Below, piece by piece: positions 15,801 through 60,615 of a DNA stretch of 64,000 bases. Below the pieces are notes generated by a model. It saw nothing but the letters and a program-made list of their open reading frames with translations, did not search any database and was not told the DNA's origin. Position 1 is the stretch's first letter, and every line of letters starts with the position of its first letter. Source of the stretch: Glaucostegus cemiculus (taxonomy: Eukaryota); the NCBI GenBank assembly GCA_976551045.1, contig CDPCPM010000052.1, positions 4,030,001 to 4,094,000 on the forward strand. Reading direction: 5' to 3'. The translations under genes were made by a program, and so were the position numbers.

Positions 15801-15983
15801 ATTGAGTGGATACAGTAGGCACTGTCACTTTACGAATGTAAAGAATTCAACTGAAAAATGAGATTTTCTTGTGTTGAACAGGACACATCTTGTTTGGCTT
15901 TCAACAACAGGAACTTGCATTGAAATAGCATTTTCAAAAAAAAATCGCAACTTTTCATTACAAGGTAACAAAAAATAAAACTT

Positions 15984-16646
15984 GTCCTCTACTTCCTGCG
16001 GAGACTGAGGAAAGCGTACCCACACCCCTCAGTCATGAAATCCTTCTACAGGGGGACCATTGAGAGCATCCTAACTCAATGTATCTCTGTTTGGTTTGGA
16101 AGCTGCTCAGCTGCTGGGCGGAAGTCCCTCCAGAAGATAGTCAAGGCTGCGGAGTGGATCATAGGTGTCTCGCTTCCATCCCTCGCAGACATATACAAAG
16201 ACCGTTGTGTGAGGAAGACCAAAAGCATAATGGCCGACCCCTCTCACCCCTCCCACCACCTCTTCACAATTTTGCCATCAGGGAGGAGGCTTAAATGTAT
16301 CAGGGCAAGAACGTCCAGGCTGAACAATAGCTTCTTTCCGCAAGCCATAAGAACTGCAAACTCTCTCATCCCTCCATCTTCCTTTGTTAACACTAGGAGA
16401 TGCTAGGTGCACAGAAATGCACCAGCACTTTAAATGCCCAACACCAGCCCGTTCACTTTAAGATCTATTTATGTAAGAACTAATGAGTAATGTTTTGTAC
16501 TGTGTATTCTGCCAAGTGTGTATGTGTCTCTCTGTTGGTTGTTATGTTATTTTTTTATGAGACGTGTTCCTGTGGAGGACGGTATCTCGCTCCTATGCGT
16601 ACCATGTATGTATATGGTTGTGACAATAAAACTGATTCTGATTCTA
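15984..16646 (+). mobile_element. 5'-truncated Rex1/Babar LINE (ORF C-terminus + 3' UTR)
   Basis: Uninterrupted frame LYFLRRLRK...FYRGTIESILT.CISVWFG...DPSHPSHHLFTILPSGRR...TSRLNNSFFPQAIR (stop at 16406); ends in gtgacaataaa plus a (ctgatt)n microrepeat. Confidence 0.93.
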
Positions 16647-17887: not shown

Positions 17888-18915
17888 ATAGAGTTAGAGT
17901 TGTACAGCAGAGGAACAGGCCCTTTGGCCCACCACATCTATGCCAACCATCATGCCTATCTGTACTAATCCCATTTCCTTGCATTAATTCATACCGCTTT
18001 CATTCAAGTACCTGAACAGATGCCTCCTAAATGTTGTTACTGTTCTGCCTCCTCCACCTCCTCTGGTAGTTCATTCTAGATATCAACTGCTCTGTGAAAA
18101 ATTTACCCCTTGGATTCCCTTTAAACTTCCTCTGACCTTAAACCTATGCCCTCTAGTTTTAGACACCCCTACCTTGGGAAACACTCTGGCTATCTACACT
18201 ATCTGTGTCTCTCATAATTTTGTATGCCTGTCAGGTCACCTCTCAGCCTCCTTCAGGGGAAAAATGTTCCAGCTTCTCCAATCTCTCCTGATAACTCGGG
18301 TTATCCAAACCAACCAGCTTCCTTCGGGCAGGCACGGTAGTGTTGAGGTTAGTGTAACTCTTTACAGCGCTAGCAACCCGGGTTCAATTCCCGCTGCGGT
18401 CTGTAAGGGGTTTGTATGTTCTCCCCATGTCTGCGTGGGTTTCCTCCGGGTGCTCTGGTTTCCTCCCACATTCCAAAGATGTTCAGTTTAGGGAGTTGTG
18501 GGCATGCTATGTTGGCGCTGGAAGCGTGGCAACACTTGCTGGCTGCCTCCAGAACACTCTATGCAAAAAGATGCATTAAACTGTGTTTCAATGTGCACGT
18601 GACTAATAAAGATACTTTATCGTATGAATCTTTTCTGTGCCGATTACTCACATCCTTCCTGCAGTAAGGCAACCAGACCTGTACACAGTAGTCCAAGTGC
18701 AGATTCACCAATGTTTTATGCAACTTTAACATGATGTCCTGACTCTTGTATTCAGTGCCTTGTGCCTTCATCAACACTGTGTCTACCTGTGATGCCACTT
18801 TCAGGGAACTATGTACCTGTACCCCAGGTTTCTCTATTCAACAACACAGCTCAGATCCCTGCCATTATCTGTTCTGCCTTGGTTTAAATCCACAAAATGC
18901 ATCACTTCACACTAT
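17888..18915 (-). mobile_element. Younger CR1/HER1 fragment nested in the older CR1
   Basis: Has its own 3' tail (atagagttagagttgtacagc...aacaggccctttggccc) and minus ORF VASQVD...EYKSQDIMLKLHKTLV..HLDYCVQVWLP. Confidence 0.85.
18326..18625 (+). mobile_element. tRNA-derived V-domain SINE, 'gtgactaataaa'-tailed subfamily
   Basis: A-box region ggtagtgttgaggtta, B box ggttcaattcc, V core tgggtttcctccgggtgctctggtttcctcccacattccaaagat; tail shared with the copies at 54639 and 58432. Confidence 0.93.
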
Positions 18916-31234: not shown

Positions 31235-31460
31235 AAAATAGAAAATGCTGCAAACACTCTGTACATTGAACAGCATCTGTAGGAAGAGAAACAGTTCATG
31301 TTTCACATCGAAGTCCCTTTTTCAAAACTGGGCAGGAGATGGGTCATCAGTATTGTTTTAATTGTTTCTCTTTCCTCAGATGCTGCATGACCTGCTGAGT
31401 GTTTACAGCATTTTCTGCTTTATTTCAGATTTTTGGCATCTGCAGAGTTTTTTTAAATTT
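31235..31460. mobile_element. Fold-back Penelope-derived element, decayed
   Basis: gaaaatgctgcaaacactc...cagcatctgtaggaagagaaaca pairs with tgtttctctttcctcagatgctg...gagtgtttacagcattttc. Confidence 0.8.
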
Positions 31461-31860: not shown

Positions 31861-33746
31861 TTGAACATTTTATTTTATTGCCTCTCTTGCAAATTATGTA
31901 ATGGGTGTCTTTGTGGACATACTTTCTCCATCAAACTTTCCTAAATAGCAATCTGATGCTCTATAATTGAATGTTGGTGTTTGATGCAAAATATTTCCCA
32001 AATATCCAAATCAGCACTAATTTCACAATGGTAATGATGCTAACACTGATGTTCACTGATGACCTGGACTTTACCCTGAAGCTGATAGCAACTTAGATTA
32101 ACATTGGAGTCCTAGGGTTCCTTTCAGTAATCCATTTTACCTGTATTTCACTGTAAGCAGCTGCAATCACGTGAATAGATCTGAATTTTAGGTGTTTATA
32201 AAATATTCTTGTTGCAAAATTGAAAATCTTGTACTAGGTTACGTGTTCAAAGTGAGTTTTTAATAGTGTTACCAAGTAATATTAACTGCTTAGCAAGTTA
32301 ACTAGCCCTTAAAAGAACTAAGTTTATATCTGTAGTAATTTTATTTAATGCTTTTAAATACAGGAGAATTAACATTTCAAATAAATTGTGGTATTCCTAC
32401 CTTTAAATCACAGGTTCCCATTTTTATACAGTACCCTACAAAAGAACTTGAGTACTTCCTGGTTTGCTATTTCTGCGATAAAGGTGGGAGATCTTTGGCT
32501 GCTCAACCAGGTCGATGACATCACAGCTGCTTAATGGCAGGGATCCCATTGAATTGATGCCTGACAGTTCAACAGAAAACTCTGTAGAAATAGTTAGATA
32601 TTTGAGTTTCTTGACATCGGTTTGAAGATGCGTTGCTATGCTACTGCCCGGACCATTTATCATTCTGGGTCATTTACCTGGTAGAAAATTCAGGAAAATG
32701 CATTCAACTTATCATAAAGACAAGGGATGATTACTGGGACATTTCCTCAATGTTTTTCATTCCCTAGTAATTAGATTTGTAGGTTTAACAATATTGTTAG
32801 ACTTAACACAGCATTTTGTAAGGTTTATTTTATTTTTTAAAGATAGCCACTTAACAAGAGCTTACTAATTATAATGTTGTGAAATGTTCTCAACCGCTTA
32901 ATCTTTTGAAGTTTGATTTGTATGGTACTTGATACTATTACCCAGAACTGCTGTACCGAGTTTATAATGCTCAGTTACACATTTAAAAACATTCAATATC
33001 ATCCTGAGTTATGCACTGTTATTTCATGTAGAATATCGCCATATTATGACAGTAAATCTTCTTCCACACCATAAAACTTTGCTGGCAATTTCACCCCCAT
33101 CCTAATAACATTCCGTACCCTATCAAGACCATTAGTTTTGTACCCATAAAGTTTTATTTAATTTGTCAAAGATAAAAGCAAATAAGCATTTCAAGTTGGA
33201 TCTCAGTAAGCCTTGTATCTATCAAGTTATGTATTTCAGCACCATCCATCAAAGTTGGCCTTGTTACCTATTAACTGCTTCTGCCTCTGTACACAGTGTG
33301 CTTTGAGCAATTGGTATCACCACAGTTATAAAACTAATATCAGAACATGATTGGCTACATTTCACAAACAATCTGATCTAGAAGTCATGTAGTTCTGTGT
33401 TCTAAATAACTAGAATGCTGTAACTGTTCTGCAACTTTCTGGTACTATTTGGTGACCTTATTAGATAAAAGAGCTTTTTAAGTGTAACCAAATTCAACAC
33501 CACCACTGTTTTTAAGAATACAATGTTCATATCAGATGCATTTTATCATTATTTTGTTCAGCTGGTGGTCCAGAAATCTGTGCTGTATTCAATTTTCTCT
33601 TAGAATGCTGCAGAAAAGCTCAGAGTTTCAGAGGGCTTAAGAGAGTATTTTATGTGTTCATTCCATTAAGATTTATAAAGTGTGTCAAATGGTTGATATA
33701 AAATCACTTACACAGCCCACTGGTTTATATCCCAACTGATTCACAG

Positions 33747-33884
33747 GTATCTCGGGAGAAAAGGTGGAGATAGACCCTGTTACTAATCAGAAGGCGAGCA
33801 CCAAGTTCTGGATTAAACAGAAACCCATTTCAATTGATTCTGATCTACTCTGCGCTTGTGACCTTGTGGAAGAGAAGAGTCCAA
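33747..33884 (+). CDS. MAPKAP1: MAPKAP1/SIN1 internal coding exon (138 nt, phase 1-1), PH domain
   Basis: Acceptor ttcacag|GT, donor CCAA|gtatgt. Translates (G)[45 protein letters not shown](S), nearly identical to human SIN1. Confidence 0.98.
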
Positions 33885-35451
33885 GTATGTGGTACTATAT
33901 TTTTGTGCTGTATCTTTGTGCTGTTCTGTGAATAAGTGCACACACTGAAATAGAAAAATTAGAGCTCCATATTGTCCACGGGTTTAATATTAGATAAGAC
34001 AGTGGTGCTATGATACATTATTTTATCTTTTGGATTGCTAGCTGTAAAACTGCTATGCTTCTGAAATCAGTTCCTAAATTTTCAGCTGCCTAAAGGTTGA
34101 ACAACATTTTGTCACACTCTGCAGTGGTGCCCTGTTAATCTATCAGAGTTGGCTGGTGATAAACCCAGTCAAATTTAAGTTGAGAATTTAATAAGGTCTG
34201 TGGCTAACAATCAGTTACTGGTGTTCTCACGTCAGTTAGATATTTTCTTTTTATCGCACCCCTATTTTTAAACAAGCATGCAGTAGAGTTGAACATAAAG
34301 TTGTGGTTGGAAGAAGTTAATGATATTAGTATTTTTATCAGAGTCCATTGTAGTCTGTATGCAGATAAATAAGTTAACTTGACAAATGTTTTTGGTGATT
34401 AGTTAAAGCGGTGAGAAGGAAAATAAGATGTAAGCTTTCAGTCTTGTGCTTTATACAGTTGTTTTAACAATGTTCTTACAAATATATATTAAACAGTGCT
34501 CGTCGAGTTTAAACTGTATCGTATCAGGATCATGGTTTTTAGCCTATTTTAGAGCAGTTTTACACAAAGCTCACAAAAGGGAAACACAAGATTACTGGCT
34601 TCGGAGGTGGGGGGGGGAACTGATTTTAAAATGAAGCAGGATTGTTTTACCCATGGATTTGTGTCCTTCTCAGCATCCACAAGAAATCCAGCTTCTGCCT
34701 GCAAAGTTATGCTAGCACTGTATCTCACATGGTTTATAGAGAGGTGCATTTGTGCCTCTGTCATAAGTTAATTTGTCGTCATCTGTCTTAAAATGATCAA
34801 AATTTAAAATGGTTATTTTCAAATTGAAAAATGTGATGTGGCAGTTGTAACTCATTTTATTATCAGTTTATTAACAAAAGTCTCAAAGCAAAAATTTTCA
34901 AATATTTGAAGTGTTCTGTGTGCAATGAGTTATTTTAAAATTTAGTCATTGAAATGCATATAAGTTTAGCAGGATCTCATAATTCAGTAATTTGCTTGGT
35001 CAAATCGTCAATTTTTGGCAGATGGTATGTTCATTTTCACTGCCACAGAGTAGTCAGTTAGAGTATTTTGGGTAATAAATTCCAGAACATTTAGAACTTG
35101 CCTCTTATCAGTTTTACATAAATATCTTAAAAATACTTTGGGACCTCCATATAATATATGTTGATGTTTAATCGAGCCAAACACCACTAAATTGATGCCT
35201 ATTTAGTATATTGTCTCTTTTTACAGAATAAGATTGACATTTCCAAACATGGTGAACTGATTTTTGTTTTAAAAGAACATTGCAGCTTCTAGCCCATCTG
35301 GTTCCTTTTCTGCTTGAAGGACAATGGCCTTAATCAGAGGTTATTTGGTGCACCTCACAGTACAGAGTCAACATCACCCTAAACTCACCTCTCAAAATGT
35401 CTTGCAATTCAGCCAGTAATTAAATAGCTCCATTTATGCAGTTCGTTTATG

Positions 35452-42805: not shown

Positions 42806-43985
42806 CTTTGTAAAATGATCAGTGTCCTGATTAGTCAATTGACAAGAGAACAAATCCTGTTGACCACATTTGAAAGGTTACTACGTAGTTAGATGTAAAC
42901 CAAGACGTTGTTTGCATTTGCAGGAAACTCATGCAGTCAGGATTCTGAATAATCTGGATTTATGCAAATGGTGTATTCCTGGAAGTAATCGATAAAGATA
43001 ATTTTTAATGGTAATAATTGTTTTTGAAGCTTGGTCCACATGGAAAGTGCTGAATGAATGCTTGCAACTTAAATGCTCATTTCAGAAATGAAGTTAATGT
43101 TACAAAAAAATAAAGGACAAATTTTGTTTGGTCAATAGCAGGAAAAATGATAGTGCTAAATTTTTATTTTGTTTTTATTTTTATTTGCAAAATTACTTTT
43201 GTTCATCTTTTATATAAAGTGTAACCAGAAACCCAAAAGCTGTGCTATGAAATAAAATGAAATTATTCTCAGAATTTTTGAACAAAATGGGTAAATGTAG
43301 TGAAACTGTTCAAGCCAAAAATCTGACTCAACACTTTTCTTGTGAAACATTATCTTCACCTACTGCATATGGAGGATTCAATATAATGTTTACGGTATAA
43401 TGTTTAAAATATTTGGCCTTGTTCGTAATGAACCGGATAAAGTGCTCTCAGCCACTTCATTTTGAGGTTACATATGATACAAACATCTATGTCTCTCTTC
43501 TCCCAGAAAGTTTGCCAGAGATTTTATTTCCAAAGAAATATGACCACTCTCAGGCTTGAAAGCATTGCTTAAGCCAGGGTTAGTCTCAATTTATTTTCTG
43601 ACCTATTCATTTCACAATTGTCTGATGCGTTTGACCCTTCTCTCCTGGGACATGGGTCTGAGATCAGTGCAGTTAGCTTTTACTGCCACTAGATGTCTTG
43701 ATTTTGTTTTATTGAATGGATTTTAACTTCTAGAGGCAGAACATACTGTGAAACATTCCTTATTGTCATCTTGGTGAAGGGATATTTTTAATTTTGCTTC
43801 AAAGTTATTGTGAACAAAATGATTTTAGGATAATTATCACTGATAATTTACCTGTTGAAGAAATTTCTTCAATGCAGAGAATGTGGATTGTTCTGTGATA
43901 TTAAAATGTGCAAATTTAAACAGTGTAAAACCTGGTCCACTTAACTTTGTTTTATAGTTACCCAAAATTACAACTTTAATGTACC

Positions 43986-45428
43986 AAGGGGATGGTGCCG
44001 GAGAATTGGAGGGAGCCGAATGTTGTCCTCTTGTTCAAGAAAGGTAGTAGGGATAGTCCAGGGAATTACAGACCGGTGAGTCTCACGTCTGTGGTGGGTA
44101 AGCTGTTAGAAAGGATTCTAAAGGATAGGATCTGTGAACACCTGGAGAGACATGGACTGATTAGGGACAGTCAGCATGGCTTTGTGAAGGGAAGATCTTG
44201 CCTCACGAGCCTGATAGAATTCTTTGAGGAGGTGATGAGGAAGATTGATGAGGGTAGTGCGGTGGATGTGGTCTACATGGATTTTAGTAAGGCGTTCGAT
44301 AAGGTTCCTCATGGTAGGCTTCTTCAGAAGGTCAGAGGTCAAGGGATCCAGGGAAGATTGGCTGTGTGGATCAGGAATTGGCTTGCCTGTAGAAAGCAGA
44401 GGGTTGTGGTGGAGGGAGTGCCCTCGGATTGGAGGGCTGTGACTAGTGGTGTCCCGCAGGGATCGGTTCTGGGACCTCTACTCTGTTATATTTATAGATG
44501 ACTTAGATGAAGGAGTGGAAGGATGGGTTAGTAAATTTGCGGATGACACCAAGATTGGTGGTGTAGTGGATAGTGTGGAGGACTGTCAGAGCTTACAGAA
44601 GGATATTGAGAGGATGCTGGGCTGGGCGGATGTGTGGCAGATGGAGTTTAATCCGGAGAAGTGTGAGGTGGTGCACTTTGGTAGGACAAACTCCAGGGCA
44701 GAGTACAAGGTAAATGGCAAGGTACTTAGCAGTGTAGAGGAGCAGAGGGATCTGGGGATTCATATCCACAGTTCACTCAAAGTTGCCTCACAGGTGGATA
44801 GGGCAGTTAAGACGGTTTATGGGATGTTAGCTTTTAAAAATCGTGGGATTGAGTTCAAGAGCTGAGAGGTGATGATGCTGCTTTACAAAACTCTAGTTAG
44901 ACCGCACTTAGAGTATTGTGTTCAGTTCTGGTCACAGCATTATAGGAAGGATGTGGAGGCGTTGGTGAGGGTACAGAGGCGATTTACCAGGATGATGCCT
45001 GGATTCGAGGGTATGGAATATGAGGAGAGGCTTAAGGTGCTAGGGCTTTGCTTGTTGGAGAGGAGACTTGATAAAGGTGTATAAAATATTGAGAGGAATA
45101 GATAGAGTTGACAGCCAATGCCTCTTTCCCAGGGCGCAGATGCTCAAGATGAGAGGGCATGGCTTTAAGGTATTGGGTGGAAAGTTCAGGGGAGAAGTCA
45201 GAGGGAAGTTTTTCACCCAGAGAGTGGTTGGTGCATAGAATGCTCTACCCTACCTGGGGTGGTAGTAGAGGCAGATATGATGGACACGTTCAAGAGATTG
45301 TTAGATAGGCACATGGAAGAACGGAATAGTAGGATATGTGGGAGGAAAGAGTTAGATCATGTGAGGTTTGATGGATGGCACAACATGGTGGGCCGAAGGG
45401 CCTGTTTTGTGCTGTATTGTTCTATGGT
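43986..45428 (+). mobile_element. 5'-truncated CR1/HER1 LINE with reverse-transcriptase domain (inactivated)
   Basis: ORF pieces NYRPVSLTSVVGK...QHGF..GRSC...YMDFSKAFDKVPH...SGVPQGSVLGP / FADDTK / RPHLEYCVQFWS. Frameshift near 44485, TGA at 44863-44865, further indels; 3' tail ggccgaagggcctgttttgtgctgtattgttctat. Confidence 0.97.
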
Positions 45429-47773: not shown

Positions 47774-47871
47774 GCCATGCAATATTCAAGCTCACATATC
47801 TAAGCAATCATGACCACAAGCATCTCTACTTTGAAGCAGACACCAACACAGTCAATGAAATTGTGCTGAAG
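47774..47871 (+). CDS. MAPKAP1: MAPKAP1/SIN1 internal coding exon (98 nt, phase 1-0), PH domain
   Basis: Acceptor ctttgtttgccttgcag|GC, donor AAG|gttagt. Translates (S)[32 protein letters not shown] (human [33 protein letters not shown]). Confidence 0.98.
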
Positions 47872-49362
47872 GTTAGTAGCAGAGCAGGTATTTTGCTGAG
47901 GAAAAGCTGGTGACTGATGACAGTGTGGCAATAAATTCTGTACACTTCTGTTGTAATGTAGTTTGACTGTAATGAGTTCAAACATGATTTGTAACTTGCT
48001 AGAGGTATGGAGCATCATTGCTGCATTTCAACAGTAAAAGTAATTCCACTTTATCTTAATAAGTGTTTCAATTTGCATCTTATGGAAATAGCAGCATTTC
48101 ACCACTGAGAGTGAGTTATAGCACTGCTTTCATAAGTGATCTTTGCATGTGTGATGCATTATTTTGAACTGCATGAACTGTCCCGTGACTGTGTGAATGG
48201 AGACCTTGTGTTAGAGAGTTAAGTATGTTTCCTTTGCTGTAGAACTCCATCCATGCTGACAGTTGCATTGAGCTTCTTTAACAAAATATGTCAGCCTCCC
48301 AGATTTATTGCTTAAACAGCGTGATGAGTGTCTATAGACCGGGAATTTTGCTGATAGGAATTTTGTGTCCAGGACACGTGTGCAAAGACCTGGCATGAAG
48401 TGCTTGAAATAGGAAAAACTGATAGCATTCCTTTTATTAAGCCATCTGCATTAAGATTAAAATCCATAGCAACAGATCCATGCAATGTATCCGTTCACTT
48501 TCAGCTGCCTGCTTTGACACTAAACTGGAATTAAATGAAATTCGCGGAATAAACCAGGCTGGGACAGTAACTGCTGAGAATTTTTAAGTGTTATCGTCAC
48601 AGTGAGGATGCAAGTGTTGAATCTGATGTAACTTGATGGGAAAGTAATTTTGCAGTAACAAAGTTTCTGTTCAAAAGAATGTTTTCTAGTTATTAACGAC
48701 GGTAAAATTCAGTAAGCTACATGAAACCTGTTCATTGGAAGCAGGCAAATTTAAAAGCAGCTTCATTTACCCGATGATCAATGATATATTTTACACGCTG
48801 ATTTAGGGAGGAGTCATTAAATTTGTTTTACACATTGTTTTAATACAAAACAACATATTTCACATTCACTTCAGTGAAATATGTCAGTGTTACTGACAGA
48901 AGAACATCACTATCGACCACCATCGTGACTCATGATTTTGATCTTTATTTAATTGTCTTTTTCTTTATTTTTCAATATTTTGGGTGACTACACAGTTTAT
49001 ATTAAATACTTGCTGGAGTTTATAGATTCTGTAAGGCATTCCTATTGCAATTAAAATGTTAATGATAGTGTTTCATTGAAGTGCTTTAACATATTAAAAT
49101 TAAAATCTGTTGTAAAAACATTAGCATCAAAACAGATGTAACACAGTTCAAATTGCAGTTAAGTTCAATGGGTATTTCATTTTAATGGCAGAAACCTACA
49201 ATTGAACAGAAAGAGAAAGAATCAAAGATAATGAACATGTTTTGTGCACCTAATTCTTCAGTAACCTCAAACAGTTTTGAGCTTGGTTTAGGGGGGAAAG
49301 CTCAAGCTCCTAACATGTCAGTTTGATTAAACGCTTCTCTTGATAATTTTGTGATGCAAGCT

Positions 49363-49620
49363 CTTTTTTTTTAATTTTAAATTTTATTTACAGCGTAGTA
49401 ACAGGCCCTTTCGGCCCTCCGAGTCCACGCCGCCCATTTTAAACCCACAAATTAACCTACCCGTACACGTCTTTCAGAATGTGGGAGGAAACCGGAGCAC
49501 CCGGAGGAAACCCACGCAGACACGGGAGAACGTACAAACTCCTTACAGTCAGCGACGGGAATCGAACCCGATCGCTGGCGCTGTAACAGCGTCGCGCTAA
49601 CCGCTACGCTATCGTGCCGC
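49363..49620 (-). mobile_element. Young full-length V-domain tRNA-SINE, CR1-tailed subfamily
   Basis: CpG-rich. Minus strand gcggcacgatagcgtagcggttagcgcg...gggttcgattcccg (A/B boxes), V core, then tail gggccgaaagggcctgttactacgctgtaaataaaat and an A-rich end. Confidence 0.95.
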
Positions 49621-49884
49621 TCTCTTGACATTGATTTTCCTTTCCCCCAATGGCACACTATCTTTAAAATTCTCTAGAAATAAAATGTTGTTGTTTTACT
49701 GTGGCCGTAACGTGTGGCTTGTGTATGAAGAGAATCGGGATTGAAACAATCCACATCTGACTATAGCATTGTCTTAACTGCTGGGAGTCAGTTTTTAACT
49801 TTCATCACTGAAGATTAATTTGACTAAATATAGGAACCACTTTGTTTGGTGGCTAATATTAAATGAGCTATTGAAGTAAGAAGT

Positions 49885-50780
49885 AAAAACCGAAAATGCT
49901 GGAAGCATTCAGCAGGTCAGGCAGCATCTGTGGAGAGAGAAGCAGATAACATTTTGGGCTGAAAGCCCTTCAGAACTGGGAAGGAGGGAAAACAAAGTGG
50001 TATCAAGCTGCTGAGGAGTTGGGAGAGGGATGGATAAGACAAAGGGAACATCCTTGATAGGGTGAGGCCAGGGTCACTGTGGGCATCGTTGTAGGGGTCA
50101 TTTGGTCAATGGGTTAATGGGGCAGTTAGTGACAGAAAATGAACAAAAGCTATGAAGGCCATTAGAGAATGAGGGTACAAACTGAGTAATGTAAAAGTTG
50201 CAGGACAGGCCCAGGCTGTGCTGATGGAGAAAGGAAACACTGAGCCAATATTACAGGTCAGCGACTCACAATGGAAATGTTTAATACTGAAACAGATGGA
50301 GAAAGTAAGTTAGTTGTGGAATTTAATATTGAGACTGGAAGTTGCAATATCAAATTCTACAACTTGAGGTAACTTTCTTTTGCTGTCTGTATCAGAACAG
50401 GCCGGGTCACCCATCGGTGATACTGGTTCAGTTTCTTGCTCAACAGCTGGACATGTCACATGACCCAGTGTTTTGCAGCTTTTACATTCCTTTGACTGTA
50501 TTCTCACTCTCTAACTTCCCTTGTATAAAAACTTCCATGAGCAAAGGACTGTATTCTCTCTCCCAAACTGCCTCCATCGACCATTAGGCCTTGTTTAAAA
50601 CTTAACCCCATGGCAACCCTGGCCTCACCCCTATCAGCAATACTTCCTTTATCAATTCCCCCTACCCTTCGTGCAACTTGTCACTTACTTATTTTCTCTC
50701 CTCCCCAGTCTGGTGAAGGGTCATCGACCTGAAACGTTAACCTTGTTTCTCTCTCCACAGAATGCTGCGTGAGTGTTACT
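49885..50780. mobile_element. ~900-bp inverted (head-to-head) Penelope-like element 3' ends
   Basis: Nested inverted matches 49921-49940/50748-50768, 50056-50074/50616-50635 and 50313-50331/50345-50363. The centre encodes ...SLNIKFHN* (minus) and NIKFYNLR* (plus), resembling a Penelope ORF end. Hammerhead-like core at 50710-50738. Confidence 0.85.
50710..50738 (+). ncRNA. Minimal type I hammerhead ribozyme motif (mutated core)
   Basis: CTGGTGA-AGGGTC-ATC-GACCT-GAAA-CGTT: CUGAUGA box with one A>G change, stem II GGUC/GACC, GAAA, palindromic ACGU stem III. Confidence 0.6.
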
Positions 50781-51529
50781 GCTCCTGTCTCCACCACCAC
50801 CTCTTGCAGCTAATTGCAGATACAGTCTATTCTGTGTGTGAAAAATGTTTGCATTCTTACCTCGCAATTGCTAAGTACAGCCTTCAGTGAAAATGAGATT
50901 CATTGGCTGCACAAGGGATTAAAGAATTACCTGAAAGTTCAGGACTAACATTAATGCTGGCTGTTAGATGAAAGTATGTTTATAGGCTGAATTGTTGTAA
51001 TGAAGGGATATAATCAAGATTAATGTAATTAATACAAGCTCTCAAATTATTTGTATTCAGATGTGTCGAAGATGGCTAAAATTTATTACCAGAAATTTTT
51101 GGTTTTGAAACCAAGATCATTGACAATAGCAATAGTGCTATTTTAAATCAAATGTATTGGCCAAAATTACAGCCAGGCCAAGGTGTTGCACTGGGGATGG
51201 AAAAGAGAGATGCTAGTTATGGACTGGACTGGGAGTTTATAATTGAATCATCCAGACTAAACCTGATCTAGTGCTGCTTCTCTGCAAAGATAAGTTAACC
51301 TATGTCTACATGGTTCACTGCCACAAGCCCAAGACAATTTTAGTGGTGTGACAACAACTAATAGAACTCGTATCCTAGATCAGGAATATCACCCACGTGC
51401 ATAAATTCTTTGCAATTTCAGACTGTAGCTTGCTTTGTTGGTGATTAAGTGACTAATGTTTTATTGCTGCCTCCAAGAGGTTCAACACCAGGGTCTAAAT
51501 CTCTGGGCATACAGTGCAGGGAGTAATAA

Positions 51530-51672
51530 CAGAGGCACAAGAGGCTGCAAGTGCTGGAATATGGAGCAAAAAGCAAATTGCTGGAGGAACTGGAAACATT
51601 AACTATCCCTCTGTTTCCACGGATGTTGCCTGAGCTGTTGAGATTTTCCAGCAGTTTGTTTTTGCTCCACAA
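51530..51672. mobile_element. Internally deleted fold-back Penelope-derived element
   Basis: tggagcaaaaagcaaattgctgga pairs with tccagcagtttgtttttgctcca; retains gaaacattaact. Confidence 0.75.
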
Positions 51673-52574
51673 AGTATATTAATGTTTGTTAACTTTTTGC
51701 AGGGAAGGAGAATGAGGGAAAGGGAGATGTTAGAGTGAGATCCATTCATGTGGAATTCAGGTGGTTGGAAATTTCAACAAAGTGAAACTGCTCAAAGATT
51801 ACTAGCTATGGCTGTGCAAAAATAGAGTTGGGGAACCATAGCGCTGTAAAACATCTGTCCGTCTGAAACAAGAAATTGTTTTTGCTTCTGTCTCTATTTG
51901 GAGGCCTCTTCAAACTACAATCCACGGCTCAGAAGCCCTGCTTCCCACCGTAACTGGTCAACGCCTCCTGGCATTGTATGTGTCATGACTAATTCATTGA
52001 TTGGGAAATACCTAATACTCCACACTCAATTTAATCAAAAGTGTGTAACTTTAATGCTTTATTTTCCCACTCTGGAACCTGTCCCAGTGCTACTATGTAA
52101 ATGTTTTGTTTTAGTACTTCACAAGCTGGCAAACTTGCTGTTGTTCCCTTCCATGGCCTGCACCTTGCTCAAGCTCAGCATTTCCTAAGACAGTCCTGCT
52201 TCAATCAGTTAACTACTGCGCGGGGAATTGCACGTACACAGTCTTGTCTCACTGTTCCAAGTTCAATTTGGCAATAAACCAGGCATCCTAGTAAGTAATC
52301 TTGCTAATCTGACAATAAGAATACTTGGATGTCTCTGCAATACTTCATTCCTGATCTGTTGTGTTGAATAGTGATCAAATTGCTTACTTCCTATTAATAT
52401 CTTGCAGAAACAAGCAGAAGAAAAACATCCAAGATAACCTTTGTTTCCCCCCCCTCTGGTGAGGGAAGACACTATTGTCCACGTCTTGCCACTGCTCAGT
52501 TGTTTTAATCCATGATTGATAACATTGACTTGTATCCTCCATGTGGGGTCAGTTAGTTGTGCTGAACTGTTAGT

Positions 52575-52665
52575 TTACCAGACTAGCCTAAATAATCTTG
52601 AGACAGAGTTCAGATCCCACCATGAAAATTGAGGACATGAAATTCAGTTACATTAAATAAGTAAA
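52575..52665 (+). mobile_element. tRNA-SINE head fragment (same family as 46170)
   Basis: agactagcc...gagttcagatcccaccatg...atgaaattcagtt. Confidence 0.45.
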
Positions 52666-52959
52666 ATGGCCAAGTAAGCATTTCAATTTTTCTTCAACTG
52701 CAAGGGATACCCTGCAATGTTTGTGAGAGCAAAAGAGGCTGACAAGTTTGCAACAATCATCAGTCAGAGAAGCCAGTTTGATTCAAGAAATATATCAAGA
52801 AGTGGTTGAGTGCACAAGATACAGCCAAGCCTGACTACAACTTGGCTGTGGTGATAAAGGTTTGAAATTTTCCTTAGGAAACCTCTGGTGTGTACCTGTC
52901 AGTAGAAATTTGTCCAGTTATCTCCTGTCTATAAAATGCAGGACACATCCAGCCCCAAC

Positions 52960-53830
52960 AACCTACTCTCAGTTATCAGCAAGGTATTGGAAGGAATTGT
53001 CAGCAGTGTTATCAAGCAACATTTATTCATCAATAACTCATTAATCAATGCTTATGCTGGGATCTGCCATGATCATTTGATTCCAGTTCTCATTGTCTCG
53101 GTCCAATGATGGACCAAAGAGCTGAATTCCTGGTGCAAGTGACTGTCCTTGACGTCAAACCAGCTTTTACCAGAATGTGGTATGAAAGAGCCCTACTTAA
53201 AGCTGAAGTCTATTGGAAAGTGGTCAGACCCACAGACAGCAAAGAGGAAGATGTTTCTAGTTATTGGAGCTCAGTTTTCTTTACCCCAGGACATTGTTGT
53301 AGGAGTTCCTCAGAATAGTGCTCCAAGCGCAAATGTTTTGAGCTGCTTCATCTATGACCTTCTCTCTATCTTAAAAGTCAAAGTGTCGGTGTTCACTAAG
53401 GATTGCATCCATCACGACTCTGGTAATGAACGTGTCCTTGCCGACATACAGCTATAAGCTGGTCACTGTTCAGGCTTGGGCTGAGAACTGAAAAGCAACG
53501 TTTGTGTAATACAAGTGCCAGGCAATGACTAATCCAATACAAGAGCCTGATCACTTTGTCTGCGTGTGCAATGTCAGTACTGCTGTTGAACATGCTGTCT
53601 TCATATCGTGACTCAGAACTAAACTGGCAAGCCACATGAATATCAAGGCTGGAAGCATAGGTCAGGGTCTAGGCATCCTGCAGTATGTGAATTGTATCCT
53701 GCCACCCCAAAATCTTGCCAAATCTAGGGTGTGCTGCAGTACTATTCAATAGCCTGGATGAGTCCAGTTCCAACAGCACCTGAGGCATTTGGTCCTGACC
53801 AGGACAAGGCAACCTGCATGTTTGGCACTC
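52960..53830 (+). mobile_element. Old CR1-clade LINE RT fragment
   Basis: ORF remnants VTVLDVKPAFTRMWYE (LDIKAAFDRVWH motif) and VVGVPQNSAP...LSCFIYDL (GVPQGS motif). Confidence 0.85.
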
Positions 53831-54638
53831 TCTCCTCCACCTTAAATTAGTCTCTCCTCCACCTGTGCTTGGTTTGGGAAATAGGTGGTGCACACTGTCA
53901 CCCCACCTTCAGGCAGACTGTCGAGATGCTGTCATCACATTGAGTGATTTCAGCCACAAGTTCAATCCTACCACATCTCAGCTCAGTACCTTACACCACC
54001 AAAGAACTGTATCCTGATACCAACAAAATTCTGCACATCCTCGAAAGGTTGATGCTTCCTTCATGTATTGTTGACCTTGTTTAAGACTTGTAATTAAACT
54101 GCTTAGAATTTATATGGCAATCAAGCCAATTAGAAAGTAGCAATACAAAATTATTTGGACAACTTTTCTAATTCTCAAATTCCCATCTAAAGTACAGCAC
54201 AACTGCTGTACTTCCCATTAAATTAAAACTAGCTGAATTTCAGTTTTTAAAAATGCAAGTATGAATGGCATTGATACATTTAGAAATATTACACATTAAT
54301 GCCAAAGAAAAAACAACTTCATCATGTTTCTTGTACAATAAACTCTGCAACATATTAAGATATAATATTCAGACACTAAGCATCACTCAGTGAGTTCAAG
54401 TAGAGAAAATATTTTCTCAACCAGTGGCACAACTGAAGCCATCTTCTACATGAATACATTAAAGATAACAGGACCCAAGAGAGTAAGTCGTGTTACTTGT
54501 GACCGAACATTTCAGAAATTCCAAAAGTTGCATCCTTGCTGAACAATCAGAAAACTTCACATGTACCAATTTAATCAGTGGTGCTGGGGGGAAAGAAAGT
54601 GAAGTGACTTGCATTAAGGGAGTGTGAAATATTTCTGC

Positions 54639-54927
54639 TAGTGTAGCGGTTAGCGTAACGCTATTACAGTGCCAGTGACCCAGGTTCAATTCTGGCCACT
54701 GTCTGTAAGGAGTTTGTACATTCTCCCCGTGTCTGTGTGGGTTTCTTCCAGGTGCTCCAGTTTCCTCCCACATTCCAAAGACGTACAAGTTAGGAAATTG
54801 TGGGCATGCTATGTTGCCGCTGGAAGCGTGGCGACACTTGTAGGCTGCCCCCAGAACACACTACACAAAGATGCATCTTGCTGTGTTTAGATGTACATGT
54901 GACTAATAAAGATATCTTGTCTTATCA
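54639..54927 (+). mobile_element. V-domain tRNA-SINE, 'gtgactaataaa'-tailed subfamily
   Basis: tagtgtagcggttagcgtaacgctattacag...ggttcaattc...V core...gatgtacatgtgactaataaagatatcttgtcttatc. Confidence 0.95.
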
Positions 54928-55319
54928 TGGCCAACCTAAATATTGAAGGTAAAGTTTCACTTGTGCTTTTCCATACGTTGATTGCTGCAGTAATTCAGAA
55001 CTATAAAGTGCCAAGAACACATTTGAGATAATTTAATATCATACCTGACTGTCTTCTTAAAATGTTAACTGCTCTGTTTGCAGGTTTACCAAGCAAGCTA
55101 TCATCACACAAAGGAACATCCTAAACATAATGCAAATGTGCTCATTAATGGAGCACCCACACAAAAAGGGAGCTTTCAGCAGTCAGAGCTTAGACAATGC
55201 TGATTATTTCCCACCAGTGTGGTTAACTAATTTACCTCCTGTGCCAGACATTTTGGCTCCCTCAAAACATCATGTAAACTTTTGCCAGTGCATACAAGTC
55301 TAAACGTTGCAAGAGCAGC

Positions 55320-55550
55320 ACAGATGAAGTGCTGGAGGAACTCAGCAGGTCAGGCAGCATCTACGGGAGAGAAATGAACAGTTGATGTTTCAAGCCGAGA
55401 CCTTCATCAGGTCTCGATGAAGGAGTCTCAGCTCAAAACGTCGGCTGTTCATTTCCCTCCACAGATGCTGCCTGACCTAAGTTCCTCCAGCATTTTGTGT
55501 GTGTGTGTGTGTGTTGTTCCAAATTTCCAGTTTCTGCAGTCACTCTTGTG
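55320..55550. mobile_element. Best-preserved short fold-back Penelope-derived element with opposed hammerhead cores
   Basis: ~80-bp inverted arms gctggaggaactcagcaggtcaggcagcatc...ccttcatcag / cgatgaagg...gatgctgcctgacct..gttcctccagc; (TG)n expansion at ~55496-55514. Confidence 0.9.
55381..55410 (-). ncRNA. Minimal hammerhead ribozyme motif
   Basis: Minus strand CTGATGA-AGGT-CTCG-GCTT-GAAA-CATC-AAC: intact CUGAUGA and GAAA boxes, stem II with wobble pairs; CGUC>CAUC is consistent with CpG decay. Confidence 0.6.
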
Positions 55551-56779
55551 TAAACATCACAGGAGACATATTTGTTGAGTAGGTGGGTTCTTAAAGAGAA
55601 GGGTATTTGAAGCCCATGTCTATCTCATGGCAGATGCAACTCCCTGTTTGTTTCTGTGGAAGCTGCAGATTATGTAAATTGTCCCGAAGAAGGGTCATGT
55701 CGTTCAGCAGCCATGTTCAGTGAATAACCTGGCTGCTCTTTACTCATCCTGTGTTTCATCATCACCCTTCTCAAGGTTTCAGGAGAGGCTCAAAGCCATC
55801 CATCTGAAGTATCCTGTTGACTGACATCCTATACACGTGCAGAAGCTTTAATGCAGGTATAGGTGGGGTACTCAATGTGACATTAGTAAGCTGATTAAAA
55901 AATACATGGTGAACAGTGGTTATGTACCTTGACATTTATTTATTTATAAAAACATTTATTAAACATTTCTGTGTCAGAGAGGTTTTCCCTTCAGTGAGTT
56001 TGGGGAGGAGCAGGCTGTGTTCTATGGTTCTGTTGGTCCAGTGGACCTTTTTCCACTTTAAGTTTTGCCATCCTTTTTCTACACGGAGGAAGTCCTGCAC
56101 ACTGTAAACTGTTATTGCTGTGTGGGCTTTCTTTGAAGTCATGTCCACACTCTCGTCCTCTCCTCTTCCTTACCAAAATATACATTTTGGTTAGAAGAAA
56201 CAATAATGAAAAATGTAGCTGCCTTTGCAATTAACCCATCCTCGCTCTGAATATCCAAACAGGAATTACAAACTACCTACTTTACAAACCCTCTGTATGA
56301 GGGTTTCCACTACAGCAGGAGCTGTAATGAAAATTAGTCATCACATTTCTGCAGGTCAGGTAAAAGATTGCAAATCATTTGGTGTACTCCACATCAGAGA
56401 TGATCACCGGTGCACTTGCATACATTTTACAGCCTCTTCATCTTGGAAGCAGAAAGTGTGTATTGTGGTTCCCCAGACAATTCCACCACTGGATGATGTC
56501 TTTAGGCCCTCTGGTGAGCCTTCTTCTCCACTTGTCATACCCCGGCTGCCATTGTGCCCCATGCTTTCCTGCACACCTTTCTATTCCTGCTCTTCATTAC
56601 ATGGGGCTTCTGCTGAGGAGAAAGTGAGTGACTGTGTGATGATGTGTTGCTGCAGCTGGAAGCAGATCATGAGCTTTCATCTTCCTCTGCTGCTGCTTTC
56701 TCTAGCTACATCCAGAAGGCAAAAACAATTTGCGTTTCCATTTCTGGGCCAAGCCAGAGTTCTTTGTGTCCTTTGGGGC

Positions 56780-56945
56780 TAGCCACTTCTGTAATGTAGG
56801 AAACCAGACTACTTGTACCCAGATCACATAACGTGCAATAGAGATCAAAAGCTGAAAGCAGATCACAGTGTGGTTGATAAAGGGTACAAGGGGGAAAGCT
56901 GTTTAATGCCTTATTTGATTGAATTGGAAACATTGCATGTGGAAA
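56780..56945 (-). mobile_element. Decayed Deu-domain SINE remnant
   Basis: agccacttctgtaatgtaggaaac...gtggttgataaaggg...gtttaatgccttattt. Confidence 0.4.
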
Positions 56946-57190
56946 AAATGAGGGTAATATTTAAGGTGAAAACTGAAAATGCCCTCAAAGTGTTGTTAAT
57001 AACCAAGTTGCCCATTCAGTGAGCAGCTAACATGTGGATTCAATGTTGTCTCCGGCCAGATTGTGCACTTGCTAAAAACTTTGCAGCAGTCCCAACACTC
57101 CTGGCTGCCCCTCCCTACGTGACGTGCACCCACTCAATGCAGGGAGTAACACTGAGAGTTTCCCTGGCTTGAGGTGACCACCGTGGCAGA

Positions 57191-57304
57191 CATGGGAAAG
57201 TGGCACACTGCAGAAATTCTTGGCTTGTCTCAGTATAAGATGGCTGGCATGGGAAAATGGCACACTGCAGAAATTCTTGGCTTGTCTAAGTATAAGATGG
57301 CTGG
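57191..57304. repeat. Tandem duplication, 2 x 57 bp
   Basis: catgggaaa(g/a)tggcacactgcagaaattcttggcttgtct(c/a)agtataagatggctgg at 57191 and 57248; 2 mismatches. Confidence 0.95.
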
Positions 57305-58431
57305 CTCGAGCAACTGGTAGCGTACAACTGCCTGAAGTATCTTAAAACCTTACCATCTGCTCGTGGCCCCCATCTTGTTTTTATATTTTTCATCACCATT
57401 TTACTTTCATGATCATTGATTTTCCTGAGCCCAGCAGTCATTGTGTGTGTTACATCAGGGATGTGTCCAATTGACTCAAACATTAACAAGTTAACTGTCT
57501 CAATCACTCTTGCTAGTCCAGACTAAGGTTTTATTAGCCATGAAAAAAATATTCAAAATCATTTGAAGCTATCAGCTTTAAAATTTAACGACTATGAAGA
57601 CCCAGCAGTACATAAAACTGTTCAGGTTTTAAGCTGCCAAATCTTTTCAGTGAACCAACTGATGCTAAGCCAAAGGGCTTTTTGCATTTTGATTTTTACA
57701 TTAACCTTCCATTAAAAATTATCACGGCTATCATCACAAAGTATCGTGGCCAATAAATTAGCATTTTATGAGACATGTAAAACAAGTATTTACGATTTGC
57801 TAATGTGACTGTCTTTCATGCTGAACCAGCTTCTGCGTCAATTTTATTCACTGCTCTCCACCTTTTTAGGTCTCTTCGTGGGATTAGCCTCAAGGCTTTT
57901 ATATCTTCACTCTTAAACTAACGGTGCTGGCATTTTGTTCTGTACTGGGAAGGAACTCACATGAAGTGGGTAACCTTTTTAATTGAGACACATTGTAAAA
58001 AAAATCATTCCCACACTCAATCATTTTGATTCAAAGTTGAACCTGAGTTCTGTAGCTTCACTCATGTCTAAATTAGTTCATGGCCATGTGCTAAAGGTTA
58101 ACCAATTCTTTAACACAGAAGAGTGGGATGGGACTTAAACATACAAGTCTGGGCAAATCAACAAAACTTCATTGATTGAAGTGTATTATTTTTAAGAGGG
58201 TTACATTTTATTGAAAATTGCAACAAAAGCACCAAATTTACCATCAAATGTTGAAGTAAAATGTACAGCCCTATTGTAACCAAACTACTGTTCATCAAAT
58301 GCTTTTCAGCACATCTTGAGGTAATCCAAGTTGTGCATTCTAATAGGGCCATAGCTGATCGTAACTGACTGACAGCCAGCATTCGAGCAAAGATCAGTTT
58401 TTAAACATGGATGAGCTGTCAGCCTCTGCTT

Positions 58432-58680
58432 GGTAGTGTAGTGGTGAGCATAACTCTATTACAGTGCCAGTGACCTGGGTTCAATTCTGGCCACTGTCTG
58501 TAAGGAGTTTGTACGTTCTTTCTTCCCACATTCCAAAGACGTACGGGTTAGGAAGTAGTGGACATGCTATGTTGGCGCTGGAAGCGTGGCAACATTTGTG
58601 GGCTGCCCCCAGAACACTCTACGCAAAAGAAGCATTTCACTGTGTGTTTTGATATACGTGTGACTAATAAAGAAATCTTA
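58432..58680 (+). mobile_element. V-domain tRNA-SINE, 'gtgactaataaa'-tailed subfamily, internal deletion
   Basis: Same head and tail as the 54639 copy; lacks part of the V core after gtttgtacgttct. Confidence 0.93.
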
Positions 58681-58920
58681 AACTAAAATCAGAATCTCTT
58701 AATGTTGTAATTGATTAGGAGCTGATTGAGCTCAGATCCAAATTGGTGACCATTCTTGAAAATTTGTTGGCCTTTCGTTGTTGTCGAGAGAGGCTGCACA
58801 GCAGCAGGCCTGCCGAGTCCATGCCAGCCAAACAGTATCTGAAGTGTACTTCAAGTTCTTACTGATTTTCTTCCACAACTGCCAAAATAATGACACCTGC
58901 GTGTTTCTGTTTGTTGCTAG

Positions 58921-60369: not shown

Positions 60370-60615
60370 AATCAAATAACTGCACATTTGGAAATCTAAA
60401 ACACAAACACTCAACAGGTCGGGCAGCATTTGTGGAGGGAGAAATGAGTAACATGTCTAGTCTGGGACTCTGACAGAATTGAAGAGAAAAATATGCCAGA
60501 TCTCTTTCCCAGTTCTCATGGAGGGTCTCACCTGAAATGTTAATAGTTTCTCCTTCCATAGCTGATGCTGCTTGACCTGCTGAGTGTTCCCAGCATTTTC
60601 TGTTTCTGTTTGCTC
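60370..60615. mobile_element. Fold-back Penelope-derived element, decayed
   Basis: aacactcaacaggtcgggcagcat pairs with atgctgcttgacctgctgagtgtt; degenerate core cagttctcatggagggtctcacctgaaatgtta. Confidence 0.8.

Follow-up and report, generated by a model that had tools for sequence, protein, structure and literature searches.

Accounts of endonuclease-bearing (EN+) Penelope-like elements (PLEs), among them Adineta Pen2/Pen2a (PMC3846280), the elements treated in PMC8557442 and the Penelope of D. virilis (PMC2377424), describe an insertion unit that comprises a pLTR, an adjacent inverted and 5'-truncated copy, a tail of 30-40 bp at one end and a target-site duplication (TSD). An inverted pLTR, an optional one-sided tail and a TSD are the typical PLE layout in these accounts and in PMC8969392, and the origin of the inverted pLTRs is named as an open question in PMC8557442. 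In vitro work on the Poseidon element PAc of Anolis (Frangieh et al. 2024, PMC11167929) places a pair of tail-bounding end sites downstream of a hammerhead with an AUG in its core. The same study shows that a purified PLE protein, a dimer by prediction, can cut each of the two strands and extend it, and that reverse transcription starts at these two sites. Hammerhead motifs have already been reported in fish Neptune and Poseidon elements, and opposite-strand hammerhead pairs 100-700 bp apart were noted in Schistosoma in 2014 (PMC4209133). Cleavage by minimal hammerheads is weak even when they are intact, and it depends on dimer formation or on help from a protein (PMC4209133, PMC11167929). The non-LTR retrozymes (bioRxiv 10.64898/2026.07.22.740005), which are likewise non-coding, pLTR-derived and hammerhead-bearing, are described as direct tandem repeats with complete hammerheads.

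How does the unit at 55313-55551 of the window (the whole 64-kb stretch of DNA analysed here) compare with these systems? With the EN+ PLE unit it shares head-to-head copies, a tail at one end, a TSD in the range of ~9-17 bp and variable 5' truncation. It differs in that both copies are cut to 100-135 nt, leaving only the two pLTR ends, a form taken by about a third of the copies sampled. Every feature of an EN+ PLE insertion is present in the family, namely continuity with GIY-YIG and reverse transcriptase (RT) coding sequence, an adjacent inverted copy, a one-end tail and a variable TSD, although the TSD at the locus is weaker. With PAc it shares the two end sites bounding the tail downstream of a hammerhead with an AUG in its core. 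It resembles the retrozymes in origin and content, but it is an inverted pair rather than a direct repeat and its hammerhead cores are incomplete, which rules out that identity. We conclude that the unit is very probably an old insertion in which the 3' end of an endonuclease-bearing PLE stands twice, head to head, with both copies truncated at the 5' end. A single target-primed event is its likely origin, and it is probably inert now, an ordinary dead insertion of a known kind. Its features are collected in Table 1.

Table 1. Features of the fold-back insertion and of its host intron, in window positions
Feature	Position	Strand	Remarks
Left copy of candidate TSD	55301-55315	+	Decayed; 11/15 identical to 55551-55565; last 3 nt overlap arm end
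Tail-less arm, Penelope-like pLTR end	55313-55411 (99 nt)	-	Family positions R4 to R102
Minus-strand minimal hammerhead remnant	55379-55410	-	C3-A9 and GAAA intact; stem I 5' strand absent
Head-to-head joint	55410-55416	+	GGTCTCG there repeats stem II sequence
Tailed arm, pLTR end with (GT)n expansion	55416-55551 (136 nt)	+	Family positions R7 to R133
Plus-strand hammerhead remnant (MAPKAP1 pre-mRNA strand)	55416-55447	+	C3 and U4 absent; G12>A; extra stem II base; stem I 5' strand absent
Penelope-type 3' tail, tailed arm only	55516-55551 (~36 nt)	+	Beyond the palindrome; from bimodal family 3' ends; tail concept as in PMC11167929 and PMC8557442
Right copy of candidate TSD	55551-55565	+	Decayed; pairs with 55301-55315; first base common with arm end
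Last MAPKAP1 intron, approximate bounds	47870-58920	+	Flanking exons placed by peptide motifs

The initial annotation had described two inverted arms of ~80 bp. The inverted arms are real, but the unit is larger and less symmetric than was thought, a lopsided pair of 99 and 136 nt with a tail of ~36 nt on one of them; three nested inverted-repeat pairs were found within it. A long hairpin had been expected on either strand, and the plus and minus strands do each fold, in prediction, as a single long hairpin (-143.2 and -131.9 kcal/mol, z -11.2 and -12.4, respectively), with none of 200 shuffles equally stable. The predicted hairpin has 95 pairs in total, and its longest perfect helix is 20 bp. 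Measured against the family majority, the tail-less arm carries 13 substitutions in 98 aligned positions and the tailed arm 17 in 129, so that both stand at ~13 percent, compared with a median of 8 percent for the unconstrained arms of a younger sample, and indels disrupt the pairing.

The insertion is flanked by a candidate 15-bp duplication in which all four mismatches are transitions, three of them readable as CpG decay. Only one of 1500 random right flanks was as good, under a transition-lenient score that was picked after the candidate had been seen; plain scoring gives it only 5.5. The duplication is thus likely, though not certainly, a TSD. At the joint, the GGTCTCG may be a short templated insert; alternatively, C3 and U4 have each been substituted.

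Both arms represent the pLTR, or 3' end, of an abundant PLE, as judged from sister copies in which the same pLTR end is continuous with RT and GIY-YIG coding sequence upstream. A DNA search of the animal's own genome returned 2760 candidates, and at each of the best 40 scored places most of the query is matched on both strands. Upstream of the intact hammerhead motif, long copies have as much as ~1 kb in common, including a GIY-YIG frame that in one copy (L031) lies ~340-730 nt upstream of the motif and matches the Pfam GIY-YIG model with E 0.003, below the cut-off; searching with the GIY-YIG protein gave 51,939 first-look candidates. RT motifs lie further upstream, with an RT frame in L189 (RVT_1, E 0.008, also below the Pfam cut-off), and in most of 30 RT-anchored loci the same pLTR end follows ~1.2 kb downstream of the RT. 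The RT fragment had no match among solved structures. The assignment to PLEs thus stands on motif reading together with Pfam matches below curated cut-offs, and it agrees with the Penelope-like origin first proposed from the locus itself.

A CX4CxxC linker precedes the endonuclease, and two cysteines lie within the endonuclease core. In PMC8557442 the Neptune and Nematis clades are described as having a CX2-5CxxC linker before the endonuclease and a CCHH motif, and by these features the linker and cysteines point to one of the two clades, with Neptune the likelier. Poseidon elements, to which PAc belongs, are without this linker. No full-length intact element was found among the copies examined. 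Nor was an open reading frame seen to continue past the tail, the tailed arms of the sample sharing no downstream sequence. In a sister subfamily that is rich in GC and CpG and has a mismatch in stem I (L221-L238, on contigs C1, C3 and C4 of the G000 assembly), 0.5-1.3 kb of common sequence does lie past the tail, 75-85 percent alike between copies, and this may be the 5' interior of the element or part of a larger duplicated unit.

The family majority carries every feature of the minimal type I hammerhead of Cervera and De la Pena (PMC4209133), the motif with which the locus had been compared at the outset: a 5-bp stem I, an extra base after A9, G10.1-C11.1, a palindromic 15.2-16.2 and no helix III. 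It differs from the hammerheads of that paper in its shorter stem II (4-5 bp) and in the incompleteness of the copies at this locus. Stem pair probabilities in the predicted fold of an intact copy are 0.9-1.0. The intact 38-nt motif occurs exactly 117 times in the genome and a looser core pattern 1286 times, and both stems are perfect in 6 of 30 core-pattern matches. Among 100 listed core matches the variation is mostly CpG-type decay and loop changes and, coming from a single genome, holds little covariation signal. An older arm on the minus strand at window 49950-49972 has stem II GGGCU/AGCCC where GGGUC/GACCC is found otherwise, two changes between subfamilies that appear compensatory by eye. 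Two splice-acceptor-like pyrimidine tracts ending in AG flank the family hammerhead, at R-30 to R2 and at R38 to R54 (R0 being the first base of hammerhead stem I), and the second is followed by an ATG whose frame is open through the tail.

Both cores read from the locus at first sight, one on the minus strand and a decayed one on the plus strand, are indeed present. On the minus strand the core CUGAUGA-A-GGUCUCGGCUU-GAAA-C-AUC runs from 55410 to 55384, with one stem II G lost, C11.1>U, G16.2>A and a G>A change in the first base of the stem I 3' strand; taken alone (37 nt), this remnant is predicted to fold into two other hairpins. Since the left arm starts at R4 and the right arm at R7 (or at R2 with two core substitutions), both arms are without the 5' strand of stem I, a loss that probably dates from the insertion itself in each case. 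Neither arm has a complete core together with stem I. The plus copy is also without C3 and U4 and has G12>A. Losses and changes of these kinds abolish hammerhead cleavage. Both ribozyme copies are broken and likely inactive, so that the hairpin probably has no active ribozyme to mask, contrary to the earlier suggestion that it could mask the ribozyme. Hammerhead mutants at C3 are also described in PMC11167929. Rfam models gave no match at gathering score anywhere in the window and only chance microRNA-hairpin matches at the locus; this blank result is uninformative, since Rfam misses an intact hammerhead of the family too.

To place the locus among its relatives we drew a sample that was not chosen on structure, anchored on a 46-nt stretch downstream of the ribozyme. 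The stretch has 773 exact matches, and the first 92 places gave 90 loci (one of which, L106, duplicates L105 and is dropped where the count is 89). Short adjacent fold-backs make up 31 of the 90. A TSD score of at least 9 was reached by 19 of these 31, compared with 5 of 930 mismatched flank pairs, and by 4 of 22 short single arms, compared with 6 of 462 mismatched pairs. The 3' ends of the family are bimodal, falling at R94-111 and at R129-137, and this bimodality defines a tail. One tailed and one tail-less arm are combined in 30 of the 31 fold-backs (P ~8e-9 if the arms were independent), and in the exception, L158, the tail has been split off by a later insert. The same pairing holds in all 25 distinct top matches of the own-genome search and, by eye, in 12 of 12 longer inverted copies. 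Among RT-anchored long copies, also judged by eye and with TSDs left out, seven fit, two are unclear and two (L192, L215) are tailed on both sides.

The coordinate pairs of the joints differ in 31 of 31 fold-backs, with an uncertainty of a few bases, because positions come from local alignments and microhomology is present. Arm lengths form a continuum up to copies that reach the endonuclease, and subfamily variants do not set short arms apart from long ones (Fisher P 0.28 and 0.64), on which ground a separate short master element was rejected. The whole hammerhead motif is kept by 14 of the 62 fold-back arms, and on both arms in 3 of the 31 fold-backs; the fold-backs are thus not enriched for working ribozymes. 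These observations speak against the idea, put forward in the initial annotation, of a separate non-autonomous derivative that consists of no more than a ribozyme and terminal sequence.

The 5' ends of the arms pile up at the hammerhead. The stretch R-10 to R35 holds the 5' ends of 48 of the 87 arms at risk, which amounts to ~120 percent per 100 nt as compared with 12-20 percent further upstream, or roughly tenfold; ends downstream of ~R50 are excluded by the anchor, and the 5'-end positions of long arms were taken separately. The pile-up is not an effect of hairpin deletion, since single arms show it too, and it is the reason why many insertions are hairpins of 200-250 nt with a hammerhead remnant at their centre. 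The peak, R-2 to R10, coincides with the hammerhead's 5' edge and not with its cleavage site, which is at R32/33. With only a few ends at R30-37, the cleavage site was rejected as the main source of short arms. Splicing at the acceptor-like site just before the core was also considered as a cause and rejected, in that many arms retain the AG and no common upstream exon is seen at the joints (by eye). The pile-up may instead reflect an RNA 5' end, a roadblock at the upstream acceptor-like pyrimidine tract, or trimming during repair. In D. virilis the 3' end of an intron maps to the 5' end of helix I (PMC4209133).

Strict tail pairing and the 5'-end pile-up both fit priming on two strands at two RT start sites, a mechanism that we infer from DNA scars only. 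The enzyme of the element, acting in trans, would cut both target strands ~10-16 nt apart, and reverse transcription of a pLTR copy would be primed by each target 3' end, from the outer (tail) start site in one case and from the inner start site in the other. The two cDNAs would stop after ~100-130 nt, on reaching the hammerhead's 5' edge, whereupon host repair would join their ends head to head via microhomology; ~10 percent decay would have followed. Because both arms cover the same sequence, two pLTR copies would be needed, from two RNAs or from one tandem RNA, a requirement that sets this scheme apart from LINE-1 twin priming. We propose priming on two strands because of the in vitro cutting and extension of both strands, and the two start sites, described in PMC11167929; the main text of that paper does not report one start site per strand within a single insertion.

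We would go further only tentatively, with a proposal that we regard as worth stating although the balance tips somewhat against it. The fold-back stubs may record an unsolved step of PLE transposition, in which a dimeric enzyme primes both strands of a cut staggered by 10-16 nt, with the two strands always divided between the outer and the inner RT start site. Most cDNAs, more than half, would then end at the 5' edge of the hammerhead and not at its cleavage site, so that the hammerhead region would act as a length gate and not as a cutter; the gate might be an RNA 5' end, or a roadblock formed by protein next to the pyrimidine tract. Such a scheme would account jointly for inverted pLTRs and the one-sided tail.

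The main rival to two-strand priming is self-priming, or fold-back synthesis on a single cDNA, in which the second arm would be copied from the first. It has been proposed for Adineta PLEs (PMC3846280), and in its favour the GTCGAC palindrome across the cleavage site forms the centre of two fold-backs, L121 and L132. Arms of one insertion also share non-consensus bases slightly more often than chance would give (7 of 626 sites, or 1.1 percent, compared with 0.44 percent between insertions; permutation P 0.007), although some excess is expected because each pair comes from one source subfamily. The two arms, however, mostly differ in the family position at which they start, and additional bases often separate them; the tail-less end at R94-111 is used by single arms and long copies as well, which suits an initiation site better than a fold-back stop; we consider self-priming unlikely. 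Still less likely is that the fold-back is itself the non-autonomous element, with the PLE enzyme retrotransposing a transcript of the whole hairpin in one piece. PLEs can mobilise pLTR-flanked sequence in trans (PMC3846280), and fold-backs are very common, as seen in the sample, in all of the best 40 of 2760 candidates and in at least four more examples within the window. A joint with CAG/CTG microhomology moreover recurs in several top matches, as a mobile master could give, and that of L030 is close to the joint of the locus; these matches were selected for likeness to the locus. Against this, every sampled copy has its own joint, and the outer ends fall at two fixed sites where whole-hairpin copying should leave one ragged end. 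The continuum to long-armed copies, the lack of subfamily variants private to short copies and the use of the same end points by single arms argue in the same direction, as does the absence of an A>G editing scar from the DNA of the locus, where the plus strand has 6 A>G and 5 T>C changes and hence no strand bias. Three other fold-backs (L109, L130, L147) have four or five A>G changes, all confined to a single strand; these are possibly editing scars, but they are few and in part subfamily variants.

Two further readings give the hairpin a different nature altogether. Co-option as a regulatory double-stranded RNA in the last MAPKAP1 intron, acting through editing, small RNA or splicing, we hold to be very improbable. 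It would suit the strong hairpin predicted on the pre-mRNA strand and the acceptor-like pyrimidine tract on the plus arm, but both arms have decayed as ordinary copies do, with indels that break the pairing, and like copies number in the thousands. At the level of sequence and predicted fold, 55313-55551 shows no sign of function. That the unit is a MITE or another DNA transposon with terminal inverted repeats (TIRs), as its short, non-coding, palindromic, duplication-flanked form might suggest, can be practically dismissed. The outer ends are unequal, the TSDs vary in length between 9 and 17 bp and the centre is variable, and direct continuity with RT and GIY-YIG coding sequence refutes such an origin; a match of the arms to TIRs was named early on as an outcome that would overturn the Penelope reading, and they match PLE 3' ends instead. 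Two-strand priming of a truncated PLE end thus remains the reading that we prefer.

The host gene is MAPKAP1, on the plus strand, and the element lies in its last intron, as the initial annotation had placed it. The CRIM exons of the gene score above the Pfam cut-off and lie upstream of the 64-kb window, and a SIN1_PH match at 33746-33886 is weak (E 0.36, below the cut-off). The last two exons are at ~47.8 and ~58.9 kb, where we placed them with short peptide motifs that we take to be theirs. Within the MAPKAP1 pre-mRNA the unit would form a long imperfect hairpin without self-cleavage, and it is physically plausible that such a hairpin could be a double-stranded substrate for ADAR or Dicer. 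The plus arm also presents the second pyrimidine tract to the pre-mRNA, at 55448-55466, with its CAG ending at 55466. Nothing sets this locus apart from the thousands of like copies.

This cartilaginous-fish-like genome is best seen as one strewn with short intronic hairpins that are by-products of Penelope insertion, and such stubs could pass for MITEs, microRNA hairpins or ribozyme switches. How their ends are distributed, in both the pairing of tailed with tail-less arms and the pile-up of 5' ends, yields a prediction on the origin of inverted pLTRs that bears directly on the existing in vitro PLE system. Our literature search, whose scope stopped short of most subscription papers, repeat databases and supplements (those of PMC4209133 and PMC11167929 may bear on these points), brought up nothing on this family in sharks or rays, on strict tail pairing, on one start site per strand or on a pile-up of truncations at the hammerhead.

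Finally, the window holds other repeats. Further, older fold-backs of the same family or of sister subfamilies, at least four in number, are found at 66-197, ~31246-31453, 51532-51669 and ~60385-60603, and single arms at 49893-49985 and 50618-50772. Decayed LINE reverse-transcriptase fragments lie at 43980-44865 (minus strand) and 15969-16406, presumably of a CR1-like and of another type. A SINE-like repeat of ~290 nt occupies 54639-54925, with copies near 18331, 49467 and 58431, and its central block looks like what we take to be a V-SINE domain.
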